Source of the DNA: Cyanophyceae cyanobacterium
GTDB taxonomy: Bacteria > Cyanobacteriota > Cyanobacteriia > Cyanobacteriales > JBHJGN01
Assembly: GCA_050331735.1 (NCBI GenBank)
Contig: JBHJGN010000007.1
Coordinates: forward strand, 43,526 to 107,525
DNA: 64,000 bases
Direction of reading: 5' to 3'
The notes beneath the pieces are model-generated. The model was not told the origin of the DNA. It searched no databases and worked only from the letters and a program-made list of their open reading frames with translations. Positions 3,055 through 59,898 of this stretch are shown here, in pieces (position 1 is the stretch's first letter; every line of letters starts with the position of its first letter). The translations under genes were made by a program, and so were the position numbers.

Positions 3055-5028
3055 TCACCAAAAGTAGCCTGGTTCTACGGTAGTCTGGCGTTTGTTTGAG
3101 TCGTACTTTAACAGGTATTCTGCTGCGATCGCCTCTTGCTTCCGCAATTGCTTAACTTCTTTTTCATCAATTTCTGTATCGGTAGACAGTAAAATCACCT
3201 GATGGGATGCAGTCGGGAAGTAGCGTTCGACTAGGTTATTGCGGTGGGAGGAATCCAGCCGTCCTAGGGGCGTATCAATGGCGACAGGCAGGTTACGTCC
3301 CGATACCCGCGCCAGTCCCCACAGAAAGGCGATCGCCAGTAGCTGCTTTTCTCCGGCGGATAAGCGATGCTTGGGGACGGGTTGCCCCTGGGGATCGAAG
3401 AGAGATAGGGCGAAGCGATCGCTCTCAATCGCAACCCGGTGAACGAGATCGCTCTTATGGAGCAGATAGCGAAAACATTCCGTTACCTCTCCTTCTAGCT
3501 TATTTAACTTCTTGAGGGTTAAGCGTTCTTTAAATTGCTTGAGGGTTTGCTGCACCTTGGCGGCAGAATGGATGATGTGTTCGTTGTTTTGGCGATCGAT
3601 GGCTTGTTCGCTGTATTTTTCTAGTTCTTTTTTAGTTTGGGCGATCGCTTTTTCAATATCGCTATATTTTCGCGTCACTGCTTCGTAAGCCGCTTGACAA
3701 TTAACCAATTTTTGCTGCGCTTTTTGCAGTGCCTCGTCTAGTTTCTGATAGGCTTCCGGCGAGGCTGCTATGGCTAGCTGCTTTTCGTTGGTTTCACTTT
3801 CGGCTTCTAAGTATTTTAATTTGTCAAGCTGTTCCTGAGCCTGTTTAACCTGGAGCAAGAGCTGATTCTCGACTAACTCTAGACGTTTGACTGCTTCTGC
3901 GTCTACTCCTAGCCAAATTTGTGTGGTGTTTGCTTCCCGATTTAAAGCTTCATTTTCTTGAGTGAGAAAGACTTGAATTTGTTCAATTTGCGTCGAGGTA
4001 AAATCTAATTCATCTAAATAGTTTATCAGGCGATCGTCTCGCTCTTGTAATACAGTTTGAGCCACTTCTGCCTGCTTTTGTTTGAGTTCCGCTGTTGCTT
4101 GTTTTTGCGCCTGAGCGAGTAGCGGAGAGATTAGCTGCAATGGGAGAACGTCCGCTGCTAACTGGCACAATTCTTGACGTTGATTCTCTGCTGCTTGATT
4201 GAGAGTTCTAATTTTTTCTTCTAGCTGGCTGCGTTCTGCGGCAATCTTTCCGCCTTCTAAGCGAAATTTAGAAGCAGTTTCTCGATGATGAGCTTGAGCG
4301 CGTTCTAACTGAGCTTGTAAAGCTGCTAACTCTTCTTTAACGTTTTCTTTTTCTTGGGTAAGGCTTTTTATTTTCTTCTCAATTTCTTCTAAATTAGCTC
4401 GTTGAGAAACATTAGCTAAAGCTTTCCGTTTGCGACTGACTAAAATATCTAAATCAACCGCTAACCTTTCTGCTAATTCTAGCCCTAAAAGAGACTGAAT
4501 TGCCTCCACTACAGATGGAGGGGGTGCTTCTAATTCTGCTAATTCCTTAACCTGTTCGCCGTCAAAAAGAAACAGGTTAGAAATCCCTAGAGGTAATAGG
4601 GTTTCAATATATTCATCCCACGTATTGGCTAAAGCCGTATCGGGCCACTCTTCCTCTAGAATACCTAGAGTATCTTTACCATCTTTTGGGTTTCTTGTCC
4701 AGGTTCGCACAATTTTTAGTTGTACCCACTGGTCATTGCGAATATGTTCAATAGCTAATTCGATGCGAGCTTTATCAACCGGAGACGTTTGATTATTGAC
4801 CGATTGAGTTAGGAAATCGCTGTAGCTTAAGTTATTACGAGTAGAACATTGAGCGCGTTGTCCGTATAAGGCAAGGCGAACCGCATCCATTAAAGTTGTT
4901 TTTCCACCGCCATTCATGCCACCAAAAAGAACAATTGGGCGGCTATCTTCGGTTCCTGAATGTAGTTTTATAACGTTACGTCCTGCGTAAGGACCAAAGT
5001 TTTCTAAGATAAGTTCTTTAAATATCAT
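3055..5028 (-). CDS. dndD: DNA sulfur modification protein DndD (SMC-like ATPase)
   Basis: Walker A 'GGMNGGGKTT', 'LFLFDGEQ', long coiled coil, signature 'LSAGEKQ', Walker B 'AIDTPLGRLD', 'YFPTASHQVILLSTDTEI'; lies downstream of dndC. Confidence 0.93.
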   Translation of the reverse strand: MIFKELILENFGPYAGRNVIKLHSGTEDSRPIVLFGGMNGGGKTTLMDAVRLALYGQRAQCSTRNNLSYSDFLTQSVNNQTSPVDKARIELAIEHIRNDQWVQLKIVRTWTRNPKDGKDTLGILEEEWPDTALANTWDEYIETLLPLGISNLFLFDGEQVKELAELEAPPPSVVEAIQSLLGLELAERLAVDLDILVSRKRKALANVSQRANLEEIEKKIKSLTQEKENVKEELAALQAQLERAQAHHRETASKFRLEGGKIAAERSQLEEKIRTLNQAAENQRQELCQLAADVLPLQLISPLLAQAQKQATAELKQKQAEVAQTVLQERDDRLINYLDELDFTSTQIEQIQVFLTQENEALNREANTTQIWLGVDAEAVKRLELVENQLLLQVKQAQEQLDKLKYLEAESETNEKQLAIAASPEAYQKLDEALQKAQQKLVNCQAAYEAVTRKYSDIEKAIAQTKKELEKYSEQAIDRQNNEHIIHSAAKVQQTLKQFKERLTLKKLNKLEGEVTECFRYLLHKSDLVHRVAIESDRFALSLFDPQGQPVPKHRLSAGEKQLLAIAFLWGLARVSGRNLPVAIDTPLGRLDSSHRNNLVERYFPTASHQVILLSTDTEIDEKEVKQLRKQEAIAAEYLLKYDSNKRQTTVEPGYFW

Positions 5029-5100
5029 TCATGGATTCATGAGACTGGATGAAAGCTGAGGTGATTATAATACCACGAAAATACTTGGTGACGGATTAAC

Positions 5101-5150
5101 AGGGCGAATAGAATTCGCGGCTATACAAACAAAGTCCGCCTTCGCGGACT
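5101..5150. repeat. Left REP-like inverted repeat with two hairpins
   Basis: GCGAAT-aga-ATTCGC and AGTCCGC-cttc-GCGGACT hairpins; near-identical inverted copy at 5598-5647. Confidence 0.85.
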
Positions 5151-5179
5151 AGGAATTGTGCTCAATTAACAGGCGAAGA

Positions 5180-5589
5180 TTATTTAGGCTGTAGTTCCCA
5201 AGAAGAAATAAGCAATTTCTGTCGATGGTGAAGTTTTTGGTTTCTGATATAATCGGCTACTTTGTCGATTCCTTCATGATTAACGGTAAAAGCCGCATAG
5301 CTACCCTGCCATTTGAAGAATTGCGCTAGTTTAACTTCATGGTTAATGAGATGGGAAGAACTACCTTTTACCTGTTTAATTAATGCAGAAATAGGTAAAG
5401 TCGACGGAAATCCTACTAGCAGATGTACGTGATCTTCAATGCCACCTACAGCAATGACTGTATACTGTAGCTGTTCACACTGCCTGACTCTGCATAAACA
5501 ATTCTCTGGATGTCAGGAGTGATAATCGGCAATCTATCCCAGCTTGCCCAAACACAGTGCCAGTACAGCTGGGTAAAGTGCGATCGCAT
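5180..5589 (-). pseudogene. tnpA: IS200/IS605-family (Y1 HUH) transposase TnpA / RAYT-like, frameshifted
   Basis: Manual translation: MRSHFTQLYWHCVWASWDRLPIITPDIQRIVYA, frame change near 5487, then RQCEQLQYTVIAVGGIEDHVHLL...KGSSSH...FKWQGSYAAF...ADYIRNQKLHH. HUH motif (HVH) and catalytic Tyr (YIRNQ) present. Confidence 0.88.
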
Positions 5590-5597
5590 TTCTTTTT

Positions 5598-5647
5598 AAC
5601 CCGCGTAGGCGGGTTTCGCTTGTGTAGCCGCGAATTCTATTAGCCTT
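5598..5647. repeat. Right REP-like inverted repeat
   Basis: AACCCGC-gtag-GCGGGTT hairpin followed by GTAGCCGCGAATTCTATT; its reverse complement matches 5101-5150. Confidence 0.85.
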
Positions 5648-5688
5648 ACACTAGGGTTCCCTTTTAGAGATAGAATGCGTCTAAGCGA

Positions 5689-7242
5689 TCATTCTTGCTT
5701 GGGAAACTTCATATCTGCCCAAGTAAGCTGCTGTTGGACTCTATCGACATCACCTTCACTAACAGCATTTTTTAAATCTCGTTTTCGATGAGCATTTTCT
5801 ATGGCTTCTTCTTTAGATCGAGAACTGGATTCAAAGCATTTTTCAAGAGTATCATAAATACCGACTCGACGAGATTTGGTATAGTATTGACGTTCAGTAT
5901 CCAGCAGCTTTGCCATCAATTCCAGGTGCATCGCATCGTCATCGCAAACTTCTTCTAAAACATTCCACTCATCGCTACCTAGAAGACTATTGCCAGCACC
6001 AAGACGAGGATCGTAAAAAGGTTCTCCTGTTACCTCTTGATAGATGCGGGGTAAACTGTCATCAAATTCATGTTTTTCTTCTAGCCAAATGCGTCTAATT
6101 TCGCTCAGTTCCTCTGGACTGATTAAGGTAATATCTTGCATATCAGGCGGTGCAGTGTGACGCACTTGAACTTGTGCTTCTAATACTTGACGAAGCCAAT
6201 GTTCTCTCCACTTTTTAGTATAAGGACCGGGAATTGGTTCAACCGAAGTTTTTCCATCTAAATTGCGTTCAAAAAGCTGAACTTTTCCATAAATGCGGCG
6301 AAAATCTCTTCTGGGGCGATCATTGTCAACATCTAATTCATCCCGAATATCTAATAGAGGCTGCAACCATTCCTTTTCCTCGTCGTTCTGGATCATTGCC
6401 TCCATAGACTTGTCTTTATTAACCATTGTGCAAACCCAGCAGCCGAAGCGAGAATCCCCACAGCTAGGAGTAGAGGTATCAACGACTAAAGGACATTCGT
6501 TATCTGCTGTTGCACCGCGATACATGGTAAATAAGTCTTTGTTGTTATTCCCCCAAGGATTTTCCCACTGCATCAGGTATAGCCATACTTCATCAGTACG
6601 CCAGTCTTCAATAGGTAAGTAGATTAGAGAATTAGGTCGATTAGGGTTAGTATTGAGGCGATCTCGTACTCTCCATTCCCGATGTTTAGCCATATTCGTT
6701 GCCCGCTTGTGACTTTCAGTCTTGCGAGTTCCTAAGATTAGAATTACTTCTCCGCTAGTTCTAATGACTTCACGAATAAAAGAGTCGGCAGGCTTAATTT
6801 TCATGCGTTCGGTACACCATCTAAAGCGATTTCTGGGGGCTGGATATCCTTTTCCTATCAAGCACGTCCAAAATGTGTCTTGAACGGCTGGATAAGTTAG
6901 ATGGGTTACTACTGGCATTTTCTGGTCTTGGGCAGCAATCTTCATGCGTTCCAAAGACTTGCGCACCCAAGCAGAAACGATAGGATTTTCTACAAGAGTA
7001 TCGTTGCTAATAACATGGATTGTTTTAGTTCTTTTTTTAAGTGGAAGCGCAGCGATCGCATTCCAAATCAATTGTAGTACGCATGAACTATCTTTGCCTC
7101 CACTCCAGCCAATGACAAATGGTATATCATCCTGATAATACAACTCCTGAATTTCTGCGGTCAGTTTCTGTATATCTTCAATTAACTCTTCTACCGTCCG
7201 TTTGTCTGCAATATTAATCTCTAACGATTGTTGTTTAGTCAT
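5689..7242 (-). CDS. dndC: DNA phosphorothioation sulfurtransferase DndC (PAPS reductase family)
   Basis: PP-loop 'SGGKDS', 'DTLVENP', 'GYPAPRNRFRWCTERMKIKP', Cys cluster 'ECPLVVDTSTPSCGDSRFGCWVC'. Confidence 0.95.
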   Translation of the reverse strand: MTKQQSLEINIADKRTVEELIEDIQKLTAEIQELYYQDDIPFVIGWSGGKDSSCVLQLIWNAIAALPLKKRTKTIHVISNDTLVENPIVSAWVRKSLERMKIAAQDQKMPVVTHLTYPAVQDTFWTCLIGKGYPAPRNRFRWCTERMKIKPADSFIREVIRTSGEVILILGTRKTESHKRATNMAKHREWRVRDRLNTNPNRPNSLIYLPIEDWRTDEVWLYLMQWENPWGNNNKDLFTMYRGATADNECPLVVDTSTPSCGDSRFGCWVCTMVNKDKSMEAMIQNDEEKEWLQPLLDIRDELDVDNDRPRRDFRRIYGKVQLFERNLDGKTSVEPIPGPYTKKWREHWLRQVLEAQVQVRHTAPPDMQDITLISPEELSEIRRIWLEEKHEFDDSLPRIYQEVTGEPFYDPRLGAGNSLLGSDEWNVLEEVCDDDAMHLELMAKLLDTERQYYTKSRRVGIYDTLEKCFESSSRSKEEAIENAHRKRDLKNAVSEGDVDRVQQQLTWADMKFPKQE

Positions 7243-7257
7243 CTTTAGAAAAGACAG

Positions 7258-7662
7258 TTAAGTACCAATAATCTTCTGAACATCGTTTTGTATTTGGGCA
7301 CGGGTTTTCTCTTCCCATTTTTTCTGTAAAAGTATTAACCCTGCTTCTGCATATTTTGAGACTAAATCGAAGACTTCCGCACTACTGGTAGGTTCTGGCT
7401 GACCATTACGCTTGCAAACAGCATATACTCCTGCTTCTAATGCTAAACGTACATCGTTATCTAGACGAAAAACTTCTGCTAAGCTGTGAGACTTTACTGT
7501 TAAAACTTGAGGAATTTTTACGTTGTTCTTGAGTGCATAAGCGGCGGCAAAAGCGTAGGCATCAATAGCACGTTGAAAAATTTGGTTCCTGAGTAGGTAA
7601 TCTAGATATCCTTTGGATGTAGCCGTAGCACTAAATTTAGCTGTAATCTCTAAACGCTTCAT
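7258..7662 (-). CDS. Small dnd-locus protein resembling DNA phosphorothioation-associated protein 4
   Basis: 134 aa; 'DAYAFAAAYAL' and 'SKYAEAGLILL' resemble the FAAA..G and YANGGL..L segments I recall for dnd-associated protein 4; stop lies 15 bp upstream of the dndC start. Confidence 0.55.
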   Translation of the reverse strand: MKRLEITAKFSATATSKGYLDYLLRNQIFQRAIDAYAFAAAYALKNNVKIPQVLTVKSHSLAEVFRLDNDVRLALEAGVYAVCKRNGQPEPTSSAEVFDLVSKYAEAGLILLQKKWEEKTRAQIQNDVQKIIGT

Positions 7663-40798: not shown

Positions 40799-41935
40799 CT
40801 ATTGTCTAATCTGTACGGGCATCACTAAATAGGTCATCTTCACTCCCCCAAGAGGCATGAACACCACAGGCTGATTAGCTTCATTCAGCTTCATCTGAAT
40901 ATCGTTAGCCGGAAGTGCTTTCAACCCATCCATAAGATACTTAATATTAAAAGCAATATCGATGCTGCCGCCGCTGATCTGAGCCGGGACTGATTCTTGA
41001 GCACTGCCCACGTCTCTGGCTTCTATAGACAGCAATAGTTGGCTCTCTTCGCTATTTAAGCTGAAGCGAATAATATTATTTTTTTGATCTGATAACACCG
41101 CGACTAGCTCTAAACTGCTGAGCAGTCGTTTGCGCTCCACTGTTACCACTCGAGAAAACTGGTGCGGAATAAGCTGCTCGTAGGCGGGGTAGGTTCCTTC
41201 TAGCTTCCGGCTCGTTAAACGCTGTTCGCCTAGCTCAAACTCTACTTGAGTGTCGTCAAAATTGAGAATCACGGTGTCTGTCGAGGGCTGCATGGCCAGC
41301 ATGCGCTCTAGTTCCCGTAAGGCTCTCGCTGGAATGGTAATTTCGTCAGCGTTGAGTCGGGTGTCGGGAGCAACGGGGGGTTCGACGACGGCCAAACGGT
41401 GTCCGTCGGTGGCAGCAAATTCCAACGTGTCTTGAGAGCGCAGATGAATGCCTGTGAGAACCTGTTTGGTTTCGTCGGCACTGGCGGCAAACAGGGTGCC
41501 TTTCAACCCTTCAACGAGCACCGATATTGGCAGGTGCAGGACTTGTCCTTCATCAATCAGAGGCAGTTGCGGAAACTCCTGCGCCCCTAACCCCCGCACT
41601 AAAAAGCGACTAGAAGCAGATGTGAGAGTAGCCAGGGCCTCCTCTGCTGGCTCGTCTTCACAAAAAAGCGATACTTCTCCTTCTGGTAAGCGGGCAACGA
41701 TGTCGCTCAGTAACTTGGCAGGTAGGGTAATTTTGCCTCCCTCCTCCACATCAGCAGGAAAATGAGTGCAGATCCCTAAACTCAAATCGAAGGCCGTTAA
41801 GCTAATCCGGCCTTTGTCGGCATCTGCAACGAGCAAAGCGTTTCCTAGAACTGGATGGGTCGGACGAGAAGGAACCGCACGACCAATCAGAGACAAGTGG
41901 GTGTTGAGGTCACTCTGACTACAAACAAATTTCAT
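40799..41935 (-). CDS. dnaN: DNA polymerase III beta sliding clamp
   Basis: 'SRPTHPVL', 'AATDGHRLA', 'LEGTYPAY', 'AFNIKYL', 'YLVMPVQ'. Confidence 0.97.
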   Translation of the reverse strand: MKFVCSQSDLNTHLSLIGRAVPSRPTHPVLGNALLVADADKGRISLTAFDLSLGICTHFPADVEEGGKITLPAKLLSDIVARLPEGEVSLFCEDEPAEEALATLTSASSRFLVRGLGAQEFPQLPLIDEGQVLHLPISVLVEGLKGTLFAASADETKQVLTGIHLRSQDTLEFAATDGHRLAVVEPPVAPDTRLNADEITIPARALRELERMLAMQPSTDTVILNFDDTQVEFELGEQRLTSRKLEGTYPAYEQLIPHQFSRVVTVERKRLLSSLELVAVLSDQKNNIIRFSLNSEESQLLLSIEARDVGSAQESVPAQISGGSIDIAFNIKYLMDGLKALPANDIQMKLNEANQPVVFMPLGGVKMTYLVMPVQIRQ

Positions 41936-41941
41936 CGGCAA

Positions 41942-42229
41942 TGACTCTCGGGAAAGAGTAGTTCTATTGTACTATATATTAATCGGATTTTTGTCATTCA
42001 ACCAGGATTTCATCCTGTGGAAAACCTGTGGGAAACTACGACGATTGCCTCTTTGTAGACAGCAAGCCAGGAGTAGAGCTAATAGTTAAAGTGCTTTGGT
42101 AGTCAACAGATTAGCTAGGCATTTATCTCCCAAAAAAGTTTTCCACAGAGAAAAACAATGGTGAAATGAACCAGTTATCTTCTCCACAGTTAAAGTTAAG
42201 AATTGATTTTGAAAAAGTTAAGAAAATAG
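41942..42229. promoter_or_regulatory. Probable oriC with cyanobacterial DnaA boxes
   Basis: dnaA-dnaN intergenic region. TTTTCCACA at 42139-42147 and its reverse complement TGTGGAAAA at 42016-42024; variants TGTGGGAAA 42027-42035 and TTCTCCACA 42180-42188; AT-rich TATATATTAAT near 41973. Confidence 0.78.
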
Positions 42230-43603
42230 CTAACTTTTGCTAATCAAACTAATGCGATCGCTTAGCTGACGTAACATCTGCCCCAGCGCGGGATCTTTTT
42301 TCTGGCGCTGCTCCACTTTTTCACAGCTATATATTACGGTTGTGTGGTCTTTCCCGCCAAATTGCTCGCCGATCCGGGGCAGACTTAAATCGGTATGCTG
42401 GCGCATCAAGTACATGCCGATCTGTCTGGCAAAGCTAATCTCCCGTCGTCTGGAATTGCTTTTGAGGTCTTCAGGAGAAACTTTTAAAACTTCGGTGACC
42501 ACGGTCATAATCACGTCTGGGGAAGTTTCAATTTTTTCTGTAGGCGGATTGAGCACAGGAGCAATATTTTCAACCGTCATTGGTAAGCCCGAAATAGAAA
42601 TATAGGCCACAGCGCGAATTAAAGCCCCTTCTAATTCCCGGATATTGGAAGTATAGCTGGTCGCGATGTACTCAATGACATCCCTGGGCAGGCGCACATT
42701 TTCGTATTCGGCTTTCTTTTGCAAAATAGCCATTCGGGTCTCTAAATCGGGAACCTGAATATCAGCAATTAACCCCATAGAAAAGCGGGAACAGAGCCGA
42801 TCCTGTAGCCTTGGAATTTGGTTAGGAGGGCGGTCGGAGGCCAGCACAACCTGTTTTCCGGCTTCGTGAAGGGTATTAAACGTATGGAAAAATTCCTCTT
42901 GAGTGTACTCCTTTCCCTCAATAAACTGGATGTCGTCTACCAACAGCACATCCGCTGCCCGGTAGTGTTCCCGAAAGCTCTGCATACTGTCGTTGCGAAT
43001 GGCCGCAATTAAATCGTTAGTAAACTGCTCAGTCGAAACGTAAAACACCCGAGAGTCGGCGGCAATTTCCAAGCGGTAGTGTCCGACTGCCTGCATAATG
43101 TGCGTTTTCCCCAAACCAACGCCCCCGCAGAGAAACAGCGGATTAAAATCTCGTCCTGGAGATTCTGCGACCGCGAGGGCCGCCGCATGAGCCATGCGAT
43201 TTGTGGGACCGACGACAAAGCGAGAGAATGTGTACTTTTGATTGAGCTTAATTGGTTTAATGCCGGGACGATGGCCGAAGCCGTCTGTCGGGTTACGGAC
43301 AGACAGGGCTGAGCTAGAAATGCTAGTCTCGCCGACAAGAGCCAAACTTTCCCCTTTCGCTGCCGTTAGCTGAACTTCTACCGGCTGTCCTAAGATATCA
43401 TTGACGGTTTCGGCAATAATCTTCAGGTAGTGTTTCTGGAGATGATTGAGAAAGAACGGATTGGGCGTACGAATGACCAAGCAGTTCTCTTTAAACTCTT
43501 GAGCGGTAGCCGTTTTGATCCAGGTTTCAAACGTGGGACGACCGAGCTGATGCTCTAGACGTTCTAGAACTAAACTCCAAAGCTGTTCGGGTGAAATGTT
43601 CAC
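42230..43603 (-). CDS. dnaA: Chromosomal replication initiator DnaA
   Basis: '[16 protein letters not shown]', 'DDIQF', 'EEFFHTFN', 'NIRELEGAL', 'FGGKDHTTV'. Confidence 0.98.
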
Positions 43604-55967: not shown

Positions 55968-56002
55968 GAGTGACTGTCTATCAGAAAGCTTGCGATCTAA
56001 AT

Positions 56003-56326
56003 ATGAATCACCCGCAACGGCTACAGTTTACTTCTGCTCTCAATATTTGTCGCGTCCTTAACGGCCTGTGGCAAGTTTCCGGCGCTCACGGTGGGATTAA
56101 CCCGCGTCAGGCTGTGGAAAGTATGTTTAAGTACGTGGACGCAGGCTTGAAAACCTGGGATTTAGCCGATTATCAGCGCATGGGCGACTGTGGAAACGAA
56201 TATCGGCGTTCGTGTTTACTACCGATTTTAGGGACAAATTTTTTTGCAGGCAGTCAACAAAAACAGGCTTTCCCCTTCCTCCAATGCGCTCAAGTAACTC
56301 CTTTAACTAAAAAGCTGTATGTTTAG
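56003..56326 (+). pseudogene. Aldo/keto reductase remnant with large internal deletion
   Basis: AKR N-terminus 'LNICRVLNGLWQVSGAHG...DAGLKTWDLAD' is joined directly to 'GDCGNEYRR', which I recall as the C-terminal motif of this family. Confidence 0.7.
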
Positions 56327-56765
56327 TCCTAGTAGCCCTCCGCCTCGTAACGCCGAAAACCGGTGGCGTTTTCAGCTCGATCAGTTTGTGCAAAAAAATC
56401 AGCAACCGTTAGCGGCTCTATGTTGGGGTCTTAAGCAGGAGTGGGGCGATAGCAATGTTGTTTTAGGCATTGATTTGCATCCTCACCCTCACTTTGTTGC
56501 CTGCACTCGGGAAGCCATTGAAGAGTTGAACCGCAACGTCAACAATCAACTTCGAGAGATTCTAGGCATTCTCGATGGTCACGATCCTAAAACAGAAGTG
56601 GTCATAATTGGCATCGGAGAGGGACAGGTGAAGCTGATTCATTTTGAACCTAAACTACCACCGTCTGACTGTTTCAAGAATTCAGGCGATATTGATACGC
56701 TCATTACCGAACTCGAACAGCGTTTGAATCAAATGATGGAGGGCGATCGTCTTCTAGAACAGTAA
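56319..56765 (+). CDS. ccmS: Beta-carboxysome assembly chaperone CcmS-like protein
   Basis: 'WRFQLDQFV..NQQ.LAAL.WGL', 'GIDL.P.PHFV.C', 'EVVIIGIGEGQVKLIHFEP..PP..CF'. Confidence 0.7.
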   Translation: MFSPSSPPPRNAENRWRFQLDQFVQKNQQPLAALCWGLKQEWGDSNVVLGIDLHPHPHFVACTREAIEELNRNVNNQLREILGILDGHDPKTEVVIIGIGEGQVKLIHFEPKLPPSDCFKNSGDIDTLITELEQRLNQMMEGDRLLEQ

Positions 56766-56950
56766 GTTTTGATCTACTTCTTGAGGAAAAATTAATAGCC
56801 ATTGACCATCATAACGTCGCTGCATCTCTGTAAAAGAGATTATCTCTGACACTTACACACTTACACACCTCCAATGCATGATCGGGGAACTACTAAATTT
56901 GATGTCTCTGTTAACTCTGGATCTAGTTTCATGGATGAGATGCGTATACG

Positions 56951-57074
56951 GCGATCGCCGTCGTCAAGCGATGCAACAATAAAGGAACACGTAGAATGGC
57001 AGGGGAAACAGTCGAAGCTTAATTTTTTGGTAGTGCAAAACGTTGGTTTTTCTTGCAATATGAGTAATCGCTCC
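56951..57074. repeat. HIP1-anchored direct repeat, copy R1
   Basis: GCGATCGCCGTCGTCAA ... AGGGGAAACA (57001) ... TGGTTTTTCTT (57044) ... GTAATCGC (57064). Confidence 0.8.
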
Positions 57075-57090
57075 CTTTCCTTAAGCCTGA

Positions 57091-57291
57091 TTATTCGCTT
57101 TGATTAGCTTGATTCATTCTTTTTTGGATGGTTTGCTCGGCTTCTTCTATTGATAAATCAGCCGGAAAATAGATAGCGTTGGGACGAGGGCGAGACAGGA
57201 GTTCTTGCAAAGCCTGTGCGTCTCCTCGATGAGCGAGAACGTATTCTTTCAGTTCAGCTCGACTCATTTCTTGATAATTAGGTTGGCTCAT
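57091..57291 (-). CDS. DUF6887-like small protein (putative antitoxin)
   Basis: 'PNYQEMSRAELKEYVLAHR.D..A'; start overlaps the stop of the upstream 61-aa gene (ATGA). Confidence 0.7.
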   Translation of the reverse strand: MSQPNYQEMSRAELKEYVLAHRGDAQALQELLSRPRPNAIYFPADLSIEEAEQTIQKRMNQANQSE

Positions 57292-57473
57292 TCAAAAATA
57301 AACTCCCAATCTCCGTTTTCATAAACGATTAATTCTATACTTTCTGTAGTACCAGCAATGACATAAATTTGTTTGAGTATTGGATTATAACGAAACAACT
57401 CAATCGGTTGGTAGCCATTAGAGAGATATTGGCAGAGAATAACTGCTTTAATTGCTTGTGCTGTTGTTGGCAA
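57288..57473 (-). CDS. DUF6888-like small protein (putative toxin partner)
   Basis: 'MPT..Q.....LCQYLSN.YQPI.LFRY.....IYVIAG....IE.IV..NG.WEF'; translationally coupled two-gene unit. Confidence 0.68.
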   Translation of the reverse strand: MPTTAQAIKAVILCQYLSNGYQPIELFRYNPILKQIYVIAGTTESIELIVYENGDWEFIFE

Positions 57474-57591
57474 AACAATGATACTTTCGATTGTAAAGCT
57501 TCACTATTTTAAAGTACTATCGTTCTCCTGTCGCTGCTTGTTTCCTGAAAATTTGCTTGAATCGATGAAGCACTTTCTCTGTAAGTATACC

Positions 57592-57827
57592 GCGATCGCC
57601 CTCGTCAAATTCACCAGTTGAGCGGTACAGGGAATAGCAGGGGAAACACTTAAAGGGTAATTCAGTGAAGCAACTTGGTCTTTCTTCAAATATTGGCGAT
57701 CGCTTCCTCTCTACAACTAAACTGCGATCGCCTATCGAGCATAGTAGTTAGCGTCGGTTCCCAGTCTTGTCTTAAATAAGAGCGATCGCCCTTTTCCCTT
57801 GCAAAAGAATTGGCAGTATTTAGAGTG
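57592..57827. repeat. HIP1-anchored direct repeat, copy R2
   Basis: GCGATCGCCCTCGTCAA ... AGGGGAAACA (57639) ... TGGTCTTTCTT (57676) ... CTCTACAACTAAACTGCGATCGCC (57709) ... AGTAGTTAGCGTC (57743) ... TATTTAGAGTG (57817). Confidence 0.85.
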
Positions 57828-57832
57828 ACAAT

Positions 57833-58072
57833 TTAAAAGTGCAGTACGTAGGTAGAGATAGCGTTGGCAACTAGCGCGAGGGCAATAGTAATGACGGCTC
57901 CACCAATCCACTTGAGCCAGCCGAGGAGAGATTTAATTTCGCTAACGTCTTCGACAAGCCGATTCACCGTCGTTTTGAGTTCAGATACGTCCTTTTCTAT
58001 AACGGCAATTCTTTCACCATTACTGGTGAGCTTATCTAATACGGCTCCTTCCCATCTCGTTTCTGTTGCCAT
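57833..58072 (-). CDS. Small coiled-coil protein with C-terminal TM helix (XhlA-like architecture)
   Basis: Heptad repeats 'IAVIEKDVSELKTTVNRLVEDVSEIK', then 'WIGGAVITIALALVA'; TATAAT on the coding strand about 40 bp upstream. Confidence 0.65.
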   Translation of the reverse strand: MATETRWEGAVLDKLTSNGERIAVIEKDVSELKTTVNRLVEDVSEIKSLLGWLKWIGGAVITIALALVANAISTYVLHF

Positions 58073-58140
58073 AATTTGTCTCGTTTCAAGCTAGCGCTGT
58101 TCTACTGCAATTATAAGCGATCGCCTTCTCTTTCTAATCA

Positions 58141-58359
58141 GCGATCACCGTCGTCAAGCTAGTCAGCAGCTAAGTAGCATATAGAGTTGTAGGGGAAACA
58201 GTCAAAGGGCATTTTGATGGCTCAAAACGGTGGTCTTTCTTCAGATGTGAGTGATCGCTCCTCCTCTACAACTAAACTGCGATCGCCCTTTAGCACAGTA
58301 GTTAGCGTCAGGTCCTCATCTTTTCCGAAAACAGAAGCGATCGCCATATATTTAGAGTG
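58141..58359. repeat. HIP1-anchored direct repeat, copy R3
   Basis: GCGATCACCGTCGTCAA ... AGGGGAAACA (58191) ... TGGTCTTTCTT (58231) ... CTCTACAACTAAACTGCGATCGCC (58264) ... AGTAGTTAGCGTC (58297) ... TATTTAGAGTG (58349). Confidence 0.85.
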
Positions 58360-58629
58360 CAATAATTGAGCGGTGTATGCAATTGCTACAAAGACAGAAA
58401 AAGCTCAATTCTCAGTAGTCTGTTTTGCAGGTTATTAAAGGAAGCATAGATAGCTCTCTTCTGGTTATGCAATCCACTCTTGAGTAAGAATGCTTACAAC
58501 GTGCCGCTTTGCTTATATATGCGTTACTCAGAATCAGTAAATGAGCGAACATTTGAGGCTCTTTTCGCTGAGAACAGAAGATTGAGGAAAATTATTGGGC
58601 TGGGAGAGTGATAAAAAATAAATCGTTAT

Positions 58630-58635
58630 GGGTAC
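58630..58635 (+). promoter_or_regulatory. Possible SigF-type promoter element (GGGTA)
   Basis: GGGTAC about 50 bp upstream of the pilin ATG; cyanobacterial pilA1 promoters are SigF-dependent with a GGGT(A) core. Confidence 0.35.
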
Positions 58636-58685
58636 TTTATGTCTAGGAAACAAACACACCCTCTCTCCCATAAAGGAAATATATC

Positions 58686-59207
58686 ATGAATACACAATTT
58701 CGCACAAAACTTCTGCAAAATCTGCTTAAGAAGCAAAAAGACCAGGGTTTTACACTAATTGAACTACTTGTTGTTGTCATCATTGTTGGTATATTGGCTG
58801 CTGTTGCGTTACCAAACCTGCTAGGGCAGGTTGGTAAAGCGAGAGAAACCGAAGGAAAAAACGGCGTTGGTACAATGAACCGGGCGCAGCAGGCTTACCA
58901 TTTTGAAAAGCAAACATTTGCTCCTGCTAGCGTTAATCCAGAGTCTCCAAATAATGCTCTAGGCGTACTACTTGACAGTGAATACTACTCTTTTTCAATA
59001 AATTCTGGTGATGCGACTGACTCTATACAAGAAGCAGCTCCCCAAAATGCTGTTAACGATGGTGTAAGAGACTTTGCTGGTGCTGTTGCCTACAATAGTG
59101 GACAGTACGATAGTTCAATTTGCCAATCGGAAGACATAGGCGGAACTGCTACTGCTACTTCTAATAGTGGTGCTGCTGGCTGTAGTGCTAGTACAGAACT
59201 TAATTAA
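58686..59207 (+). CDS. pilA: Type IV major pilin (PilA1-like)
   Basis: Prepilin cleavage site 'QG|FTLIELLVVVIIVGILAAVALP', 'GKARETE', 'RAQQAY', C-terminal Cys pair; AAGGA RBS. Confidence 0.9.
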   Translation: MNTQFRTKLLQNLLKKQKDQGFTLIELLVVVIIVGILAAVALPNLLGQVGKARETEGKNGVGTMNRAQQAYHFEKQTFAPASVNPESPNNALGVLLDSEYYSFSINSGDATDSIQEAAPQNAVNDGVRDFAGAVAYNSGQYDSSICQSEDIGGTATATSNSGAAGCSASTELN

Positions 59208-59340
59208 AAGTCAAGTTTGTTTGTCGCCGAGGTATAAATGTGAACGCCAGGCATAAATTTGCCTGGTATTTTCAGAAATTTGATAGCATTTAGAAAATTT
59301 ACATGATAAAAACATGAAACTATAATTACTTGACGCAACA

Positions 59341-59898
59341 ATGTTTAAATTAATAAGTAGATATTTATTTTTGCCGATATATTATATTTCCAGAAGAATA
59401 AATAGAATATTTAAAAAGAATGAACAGCTCAAAATATGCAACAAAAATGGCTTCACACTAATTGAACTATTAATAGTTACTATTATTGTTGGTATACTAG
59501 CAGCAATCAGTCTTCCTAATTTTCTTAGTCAAGTAGGTAAGGCAAGAGAAACTGAAGCAAAAAATAGTCTTTCTGCATTAGCTCGTTTTCAGCAAGCATA
59601 TCACTTCGAAAAAAAAAGTTTTGCCGATGACTTTGATAAACTTAGCCTTAATGTCAGTGTAAACTCAGAATACTATAGCTTTCCACCCCCAAACTTACCA
59701 AACGTGAATTTGGTGAAACATCAAGCTATTGCTACCGATCCCTTAACCGATCGAGTCAGAAATTATGCTATAGGAGTGTATTTTTCTGCTGGCAATTTCG
59801 ATATATTCTTCTGCGAAAGCAGAGATATTGATGAGTTAATAAATGTTCCTGATAATCCAAGCGGCAATTGTACAAATGGCGGCAAAAAAATTAGATAA
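59341..59898 (+). CDS. Second type IV pilin-like protein (PilA2-like)
   Basis: 'NG|FTLIELLIVTIIVGILAAISLP', 'GKARETE', 'QQAYHFEK', C-terminal Cys pair. Confidence 0.88.
   Translation: MFKLISRYLFLPIYYISRRINRIFKKNEQLKICNKNGFTLIELLIVTIIVGILAAISLPNFLSQVGKARETEAKNSLSALARFQQAYHFEKKSFADDFDKLSLNVSVNSEYYSFPPPNLPNVNLVKHQAIATDPLTDRVRNYAIGVYFSAGNFDIFFCESRDIDELINVPDNPSGNCTNGGKKIR

Follow-up and report, generated by a model that had tools for sequence, protein, structure and literature searches.

How does a cyanobacterial chromosome come to carry small, unrelated genes stacked between copies of one non-coding segment? The question is raised by a 64-kb stretch of DNA (the window) from a genome of 5.57 Mb. 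Between ccmS and pilA in this window lies a non-coding core of ~140 nt, here called R, in three copies of the same orientation, and between the copies sit two unrelated minus-strand cargo units. The motif met at the repeat ends is the highly iterated palindrome of cyanobacteria, HIP1 (GCGATCGC; PMC5861425). We propose that the small cassettes were stacked one after another through recombination inside a homologous segment transferred together with them, its ends set at HIP1, and we regard this proposal as an even call. It is suggested by the recurrence of the same architecture, with a different repeated sequence each time, around homologs of one of the cargos in cyanobacteria of other families.

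The array is ordered segment-cassette-segment-cassette-segment. Two of the three copies, R2 and R3, bear an additional extension of ~100 nt. The parts of the array and its flanks are as follows.

56319..56765, plus strand: ccmS, encoding a carboxysome assembly chaperone, the conserved left flank (NCBIfam NF049993, 199.6 bits; cut-off 125).
56945..57085, unstranded: R1, core only (alignment; profile score 113.4 bits).
56951-56958, unstranded: HIP1 of R1; a degenerate HIP1, GTAATCGC, lies at 57064-57071.
57086..57570, minus strand: cassette 1 (485 bp), the DUF6888/DUF6887 pair with its own upstream region (Pfam, promoter scan).
57091-57291, minus strand: DUF6887 gene (Pfam, 73.4 bits).
57288-57473, minus strand: DUF6888 gene (Pfam, 81.5 bits).
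57571..57712, unstranded: R2 core, with HIP1 at 57592 and 57696 (profile score 105.2 bits).
57713..57830, unstranded: R2 extension, common to R3 only, with the 24-mer, AGTAGTTAGCGTC and TATTTAGAGTG; HIP1 at 57724 and 57782.
57831..58116, minus strand: cassette 2 (286 bp), the XhlA-like protein gene (Pfam, PHROG).
57833-58072, minus strand: the 79-aa coiled-coil/transmembrane XhlA-like protein (Pfam XhlA, 25.9 bits, below the cut-off of 34.7).
58117..58268, unstranded: R3 leader and core, with HIP1 at 58117 (profile score 119.7 bits).
58141-58148 and 58251-58258, unstranded: end motifs of the R3 core, GCGATCAC and GTGATCGC respectively, complementary HIP1 variants.
58269..58362, unstranded: R3 extension, with HIP1 at 58279 and 58337.
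58686..59207, plus strand: pilA-like type IV pilin gene, the right flank (Pfam N_methyl and Pilin_GH).

A first-pass annotation, made from the letters of this DNA, had described three copies starting at a HIP1 or near-HIP1 at 56951, 57592 and 58141, with spacings of 641 and 549, and we found the same starts and spacings again. Every block that it had named was located in the copies to which it had been assigned: GCGATCRCCSTCGTCAA, AGGGGAAACA and TGGTYTTTCTT in R1, R2 and R3 alike, and an exact 24-mer, AGTAGTTAGCGTC and TATTTAGAGTG in R2 and R3. Its count of 8 perfect HIP1 sites in ~1.4 kb was also re-obtained (8 per 1409 bp), and this is the densest interval of that size in the whole genome, where the mean is 0.87/kb. 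The layout that it called a cassette array is likewise borne out: small unrelated units with promoter-like sites are separated by copies of one segment.

The first cargo is a DUF6888/DUF6887 pair by Pfam, as had been suggested, and the second is a coiled-coil/transmembrane protein that can be called XhlA-like only below the Pfam cut-off; it also matches PHROG 1193 (E 3e-4). The DUF6888 and DUF6887 genes encode 61 and 66 aa and overlap by 4 nt. Both cassettes carry promoter-like sites, recognized by consensus match only, that lie inside the cassette and outside R: GCGACA and TAAAAT separated by 17 nt at 57534-57506 in cassette 1 (promoter scan), and TATAAT at 58115-58110 upstream of the cassette 2 gene (read from the sequence). 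The two cargo segments show no similarity to each other or to the flanks. The predicted model of the DUF6888 protein (pLDDT 94.1) has one helix and four strands, and its best matches in a fold search are weak, common-fold ones (RnlA domain, E 0.2; Z 6.8). No PADLOC, NCBIfam or PHROG match was found for the pair, and no report on DUF6888 or DUF6887 in the literature that we searched, which excluded most subscription journals. The pair is toxin-antitoxin-like and may have such activity; its gene overlap, its sizes and its copy numbers would suit a type II module. Of 100 other genomes of the order, 64 carry DUF6888, with 1 to 15 copies each; in 23 of the 27 loci at which tblastn placed DUF6888, DUF6887 comes directly after it.

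Is the arrangement peculiar to this window? Throughout, a locus was scored as repeat-flanked when its 700-nt upstream and 750-nt downstream windows shared a direct repeat at E ≤0.01. Flanking direct repeats were present at 17 of 66 DUF6888 loci of other cyanobacteria and at 2 of 73 control loci (ccmS, 1/27; miscellaneous, 0/9; XhlA-like, 0/13; chance-pattern, 1/24). The copies were spaced by ≤830 nt in 15 of the 17 repeat-flanked loci, and the insert between them measured 461 to 541 bp in 8 of the 10 loci measured, including the locus in the window (505 bp). In the measured inserts, the repeat stops 45 to 113 nt before the start codon and restarts 8 to 66 nt past the stop codon. The repeated sequence is local to each locus and different at every one. 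At L118 it is the last 99 nt of ileS, in copies that are 98% identical; at L123 it is part of a neighboring small gene; at L126 and L185 it is a non-coding stretch running from HIP1 to HIP1.

The repeats also tend to end at HIP1. In 11 of 16 loci a repeat end had a HIP1 no more than 6 nt away, where random shifts would give 1.8. The locus in the window, where HIP1 is 7 to 8 nt from the repeat ends, falls outside the 11. The involvement of HIP1 that the first-pass annotation had suspected is thus seen at analogous loci elsewhere. The same annotation had taken the diverged sequence between the blocks of R as a sign of selection on motifs. Since the architecture recurs with different local sequence each time, such selection is not required.

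A related case exists in the genome of the window itself. At L225 (G000 C46:81455-82797), direct repeats of 332 nt that are 79% identical stand on either side of a VapB antitoxin and PIN-domain toxin pair, and one copy is the 5' end and upstream region of the adjoining metallophosphoesterase gene. A genome-wide seed scan for repeat-flanked loci returned mostly tandem protein domains and paralogs, and the VapBC locus on C46 was the only one of the same kind; the scan is biased to high identity, and many 70% repeats would escape it.

A second line of evidence comes from ileS in the genus to which G063 belongs. Among its 20 genomes with an ileS locus, 7 have, downstream of the gene, additional incomplete copies of the ileS 3' end (28 to 115 nt, 77 to 98% identical), and the other 13 have a single copy. 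The cargo bracketed by the copies varies: DUF6888/87 in G063 (L137), G223 (L158) and G208 (L159), a 325-aa protein in G224 (L160), and a 67- to 72-aa protein in G125 and G220. Three copies in G216 (L157) set apart a pair of 115 and 68 aa, a protein of 298 aa and a unit that contains DUF6887. When five of the arrays were aligned, homology ran from the first HIP1 of the gene end to a few bases past the stop codon, and in the displaced copies this HIP1 was often damaged. The ileS 3' end is an insertion hot spot in this genus.

Some displaced ileS copies look foreign. Over ~111 nt, the functional gene end of G208 is the nearest match to copy 2 of G216 (0.90), whose own gene end does not rank among the five best; copy 2 of G223 is closer to the gene end of G216 (0.87) than to its own (0.83). 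Such copies are hard to explain by in-place decay and would fit imported or resident-replacing segments. This reading is only suggestive because the sequences are short and the genomes related, and for the latter reason the ileS events are not independent.

The three copies of R are themselves far from identical. Their cores are 69%, 72% and 70% identical in pairwise comparison, and the extensions of R2 and R3 are 80% identical. Their likeness is far above chance, since BLAST against the whole genome gives E-values of 6e-23 and 5e-14 between copies. The cores are related as a star: 17, 17 and 16 differences are private to one copy each. Such equidistant copies would fit independent origins or one early burst, and not stepwise recent duplication. 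The core indels among the copies (56945-57085, 57571-57712 and 58120-58268) are all three exactly 3 nt long, although the copies keep no common reading frame, and this is unexplained.

We propose that two self-contained mini-cassettes were added successively at R, a HIP1-rich non-coding segment. A cargo would first become linked to a neighboring stretch by an illegitimate join, most likely at HIP1, because HIP1 is the commonest shared 8-mer in these genomes. Each cassette would then arrive as a unit, made of an R-like segment and its cargo, and would integrate wherever the segment is conserved. Integration inside the homologous segment could proceed by a Campbell-type single crossover of a circle or by a double crossover with repeat arms; the intermediate would accordingly be circular or repeat-armed, RecA or a dedicated enzyme might act on it, and the order of events given here is the presumed one. 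One copy of R would be left on each side, and repetition would stack cassettes. If the units came from different lineages, the copies would already have been diverged when they were joined, which would explain the star-like ~70% identity. A toxin-antitoxin-like, addictive cargo would protect the repeat-flanked structure from deletion. Resistance of such cargo to deletion between the repeats would explain why repeats are seen around these pairs and not around controls.

Reports on HIP1 and transformation, PMC5861425 among them, fit this accretion of segment plus cargo. In Synechococcus sp. PCC 7002, natural transformation is reported to be more efficient when the homology contains HIP1 (10.1101/2024.09.10.611283), and HIP1 has been proposed as an adaptation for gene transfer in a 2026 paper (PMC13756078).

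Do cells in nature carry other arrangements of this array? Run X1 is the sole sequencing run found with the stretch, no RNA run having been found with it, and is possibly its source sample; its contigs were aligned to 56300-59300, and the observations that follow are among 8 of 23 pieces listed. Depth is 48.4 as far as 57119 and 41 to 96 as far as 57621; the piece 57596-58144 has 12.8, and what follows it 13.7. At loose ends, other sequence is joined exactly at a cassette border, namely at 57090 (cassette 1/R1) and at 58117, the HIP1 between cassette 2 and R3. One contig of depth 52 joins an extension-type HIP1 (aligned to ...58345) to an R2-type core (from 57592 on) by way of 11 letters shared with the R3 leader (58130-58140), and we read it as a junction without cargo. 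Further R1-like and R2-like variants are present. The community holds alternative arrangements with breakpoints at cassette borders, and the variants indicate strain-level variation around the pilin locus.

The first-pass idea of a cassette array with capture at HIP1 is partly supported, by the layout, by the part that HIP1 plays, by the ileS arrays with up to three copies and by the X1 junctions at 57090 and 58117. A genome-wide repeat family is not supported.

Several observations weigh against accretion at HIP1. Five of the 16 repeat-flanked loci have no HIP1 at the repeat ends. At least 3 of the 17 (L116, L128 and L130) are members of dispersed small repeat families and should be counted apart; the repeat flanking L203 is likewise of this type. 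No flanking repeats were found at any of the 13 XhlA-like loci, which are homologs of the second cargo, or at any of the 3 other DUF6888/87 or DUF6887 loci of the window's genome. The ileS comparison covers ~111 nt per copy in related genomes. Gain or loss at the window's locus was not seen across genomes, among which the window's genome is the sole member of its genus and family and has no close relative. No circular form, donor locus or enzyme has been identified. R is non-coding and of unknown function, which leaves its choice as a shared target unexplained. Recombination by homology would work poorly at 70% identity unless it occurred while the copies were still more alike. Finally, depth in X1 drops ~4-fold (48 to 13) along the array, within the R2 core. 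Because depth is ~48 on the left and ~13 on the right, the assembled path may thread through mixed strains. The dominant strain would also be multi-copy, since the high-depth contigs require R1 and no fewer than two R2-type cores set in different contexts.

Comparison with relatives of the flanking genes gave no closer view of the locus. ccmS is widespread in the order, with 85 of 120 other genomes carrying it, and the window's neighboring genes lie within 1.5 kb of it in 0 of 29 loci; among metagenome contigs, 87 pattern matches to ccmS relatives were obtained, none was confirmed, and no close relative was found.

Could R instead have been triplicated in place? HIP1 sites on sister or polyploid chromosome copies would then have exchanged unequally, drift and cargo turnover would have followed, and no horizontal unit would have taken part. 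Such an origin would place repeat ends near HIP1, and a 1.5-kb tandem duplication with a DUF6888 pair does exist at L130 (G044:C17; 97% over 1152 nt, with two DUF6888 pairs 1527 bp apart); the near-identical copies at L118 could also arise in place. However, separate events would be required for the two unrelated cargos, the equidistance of the cores demands near-simultaneous duplications, and some of the extra ileS copies are nearer to the gene ends of other species than to their own. Non-functional repeats should, moreover, vanish by deletion before reaching 70% identity. We consider triplication in place unlikely.

Accretion of units by homology is not the only way to build such an array, and a dedicated site-specific recombination system could also produce one, with R or its HIP1 as the attachment site of a recombinase encoded elsewhere, in the manner of an integron or of tandem accretion. 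The layout of the array, the sharp repeat ends at HIP1 over many loci, the several different cargos at one site behind ileS and the four tyrosine recombinase genes of this genome would all agree with this. Yet the nearest of the four is ~88 kb away on the same contig, and Phage_integrase or other recombinase matches were absent from the 45 large open reading frames (ORFs) of the window (small ORFs were not all scanned). No conserved cassette ends were found among the 10 repeat-flanked inserts; the repeated segments are long (70 to 330 nt) and locus-specific, unlike a fixed attachment site; and there is no attC-like hairpin potential. HIP1 or near-HIP1 is found at the junctions, yet HIP1 is ubiquitous in these genomes. 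No tRNA was found near the array. A dedicated recombinase is, in our judgment, distinctly unlikely.

The known systems differ from the array. An integron consists of intI and attI with attC sites, imperfect palindromes of 57 to 141 nt that fold as single-strand hairpins, and its mostly promoterless cassettes are read from a common promoter. Sedentary chromosomal integrons carry one-directional cassette arrays, which toxin-antitoxin cassettes with their own promoters may stabilize. The window's array resembles these in having small, unrelated, one-directional units between recurring elements, one of them toxin-antitoxin-like, but differs in having no intI or attI, direct copies of 140 to 240 nt at ~70% identity in place of hairpins, and promoter-like sites within the cassettes. 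An integron was rejected because no intI lies near the array and no attC structure is seen; the putative promoters of the cassettes would also be unlike an integron. The first-pass annotation had already noted the missing attC structure and integrase in the window, and both absences hold, the fold z-scores being shuffle-like and the 45 large ORFs being without an integrase.

Integrative elements, including integrase-less ones, accrete in tandem at the 3' ends of housekeeping or tRNA genes, and their junctions keep copies of the gene end. Here, too, partial and possibly differing target copies separate successive inserts, and the ileS arrays look just so; the inserts here, in contrast, are 0.3 to 1 kb without an integrase, the repeats are long and diverged and end at HIP1, and the window's target is non-coding. 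Campbell-type single-crossover integration is a duplication-insertion from circular DNA with one homology arm. It has the same homology-insert-homology geometry and needs no element-encoded enzyme, but the events inferred here would be natural, recurrent, apparently horizontally spreading and delimited by HIP1 at the arms, with no circle observed.

Where else does R itself occur? BLAST and a profile of the core found only these three copies in the 5.57-Mb genome (105 to 120 bits; the next best hit had 13 bits), and none of the paralogous DUF6888/87 and XhlA-like loci of this genome carries R. BLAST of R3 gave nothing convincing in 60 related genomes, and a profile of the three cores reached at best 21.8 bits, which is noise, in 150 genomes of the order. 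In public collections, which may leave out records of the window's own genome, a three-block pattern had 0 matches in genome contigs and 0 in metagenome contigs. A two-block pattern gave 25 genome-contig matches from many phyla and 2 viral ones; these had no further similarity to R and were rejected as chance. One match of 78% over 50 nt to the 24-mer region of R2/R3 (L031, G052:C9, 1501-1550) was also read as chance, driven by HIP1: it lies around a HIP1 where an ABC-transporter ATPase gene ends and codes for ...DRILVVEQG.... A repeat family with its own conserved motifs, acting genome-wide, is contradicted by the profile and BLAST searches, which place R at this locus alone. The annotation had coupled two observations against its own idea, a repeat that occurs nowhere else and a cargo content fixed across relatives; the first was found here, and it bears on one half of the pair only.

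Perhaps R is a functional cis element, such as a regulatory region, or a small RNA gene acting as an antisense or sponge RNA, with the blocks as binding sites or structure? Invariant columns of the core are indeed clumped, 35 of them falling in runs of ≥6 (permutation p 0.0004), as are those of R2 against R3 (permutation p <0.001); the longest invariant core run by itself is not significant (p 0.085). On the plus strand, AGGGGAAACA and TGGTYTTTCTT can pair in single-sequence folds, and the ends of the R3 core bear complementary HIP1 variants. The clumping is inflated, however, because the genome as a whole retains HIP1 sites for other reasons. As direct repeats, the copies are alike in sequence, their sole long-range pairing being a 9-bp HIP1 stem, and on both strands all 10 of the 10 segments gave fold energies no better than those of shuffles (z -0.36 to +1.40). 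Only 2 to 4 of 28 predicted pairs are compensatory, among three sequences only, the most notable being GCGATCAC/GTGATCGC at the R3 core ends. The best Rfam match was an unrelated snoRNA (E 0.94) outside the repeats, no match below E 0.9 was obtained, and the array contains 0 terminator-like sites. R has no copy elsewhere in the genome or in relatives, and each cassette has a promoter-like site outside R. The structured RNA family offered as an alternative by the annotation finds no backing in these results, and we consider a cis element or RNA gene very unlikely.

R was also compared with mobile and decayed sequences. Miniature inverted-repeat transposable elements (MITEs) and other small dispersed repeats of cyanobacteria, which PMC5861425 mentions, are short, non-coding and present in many copies. 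R is a short non-coding repeat as well, and the flanking repeats of L116, L128, L130 and L203 do belong to such families. R, in contrast, has three copies at one locus, inverted ends that match over 9 nt of HIP1 type only, and no target-site duplication; a MITE or insertion sequence was rejected for these reasons, and no transposase was found among the 45 large ORFs of the window. A decayed coding gene was rejected also. Six-frame tblastn on the window's own genome gave nothing below E 0.04, and read-through with X against 200 other genomes of the order gave a best E of 0.018 without DNA similarity. Core mismatches fell by codon phase as 11/12/14, 8/12/15 and 12/12/12, with no phase bias. As judged from sequence comparison, R is neither a dispersed family, a recognizable RNA, an integron, a MITE nor a decayed gene.

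It is highly improbable that the three-copy array is an assembly artifact absent from any one chromosome, made by a contig that threads related strains at the R2 core: although the X1 depth drop, loose ends and R-variant contigs could suggest it, the ~70% likeness of the copies is too low for collapse or mis-joining anywhere but in the short words that they share, the X1 pieces tile 56300-59300 with overlaps of 20 to 30 nt (no single piece spanning all), the 8 listed pieces match the path except for 2 letters in one 47-nt piece, and the high-depth contigs imply a multi-copy array in the dominant strain too.

HIP1 is among the most abundant motifs of cyanobacteria, and its function has been debated for some thirty years. 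The array and its parallel cases form a concrete genomic footprint, in which HIP1-ended direct repeats bracket small mobile units that are sometimes stacked. If tandem accretion at HIP1 is confirmed, it would explain how integrase-less mini-cassettes move and build up in cyanobacteria, and why DUF6888/DUF6887 pairs are patchy and multi-copy. It would also explain how HIP1 contributes to genome plasticity. If it is not confirmed, the locus would be merely an old local triplication beside a hypervariable pilin region. The broadest version, an integrase-free, integron-like mode of gene capture in cyanobacteria, with preferred breakpoints at HIP1, promoter-bearing cargo such as toxin-antitoxin-like pairs and small membrane or defense-type genes, segment-plus-cargo units spread by natural transformation and stacked arrays, is a bold extension that we think doubtful; it would give HIP1 a concrete role in building up the flexible genome. 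Within the literature scope given above, we found no description of HIP1-ended direct repeats around cassettes, and none of integron-like cassettes or repeat-flanked toxin-antitoxin pairs of this architecture in cyanobacteria.

Some features of the window outside the array were also recorded. A second pilin gene (59341-59898) lies in tandem to the one at 58686-59207, with a 116-nt stretch common to both at 71% identity, and its 32% G+C makes it AT-rich beside the 49% of the window. On the other side of the array, a 118-aa ORF at 55970-56326 overlaps the start of ccmS; its match to the aldo/keto reductase family is limited to the first ~40 positions and scores below the cut-off, and the ORF may be the remnant of a truncated gene. 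Farther off, at 3055-7662 on the minus strand, are genes for an AAA_23/SMC-type ATPase and a PAPS-reductase-domain protein, together with a 134-aa ORF without a family match, a group that may be a DNA-modification or defense cluster. The dnaN and dnaA genes adjoin at 40799-43603 on the minus strand, ~13 kb from the array, and because they stand side by side, the window may be near a replication origin.

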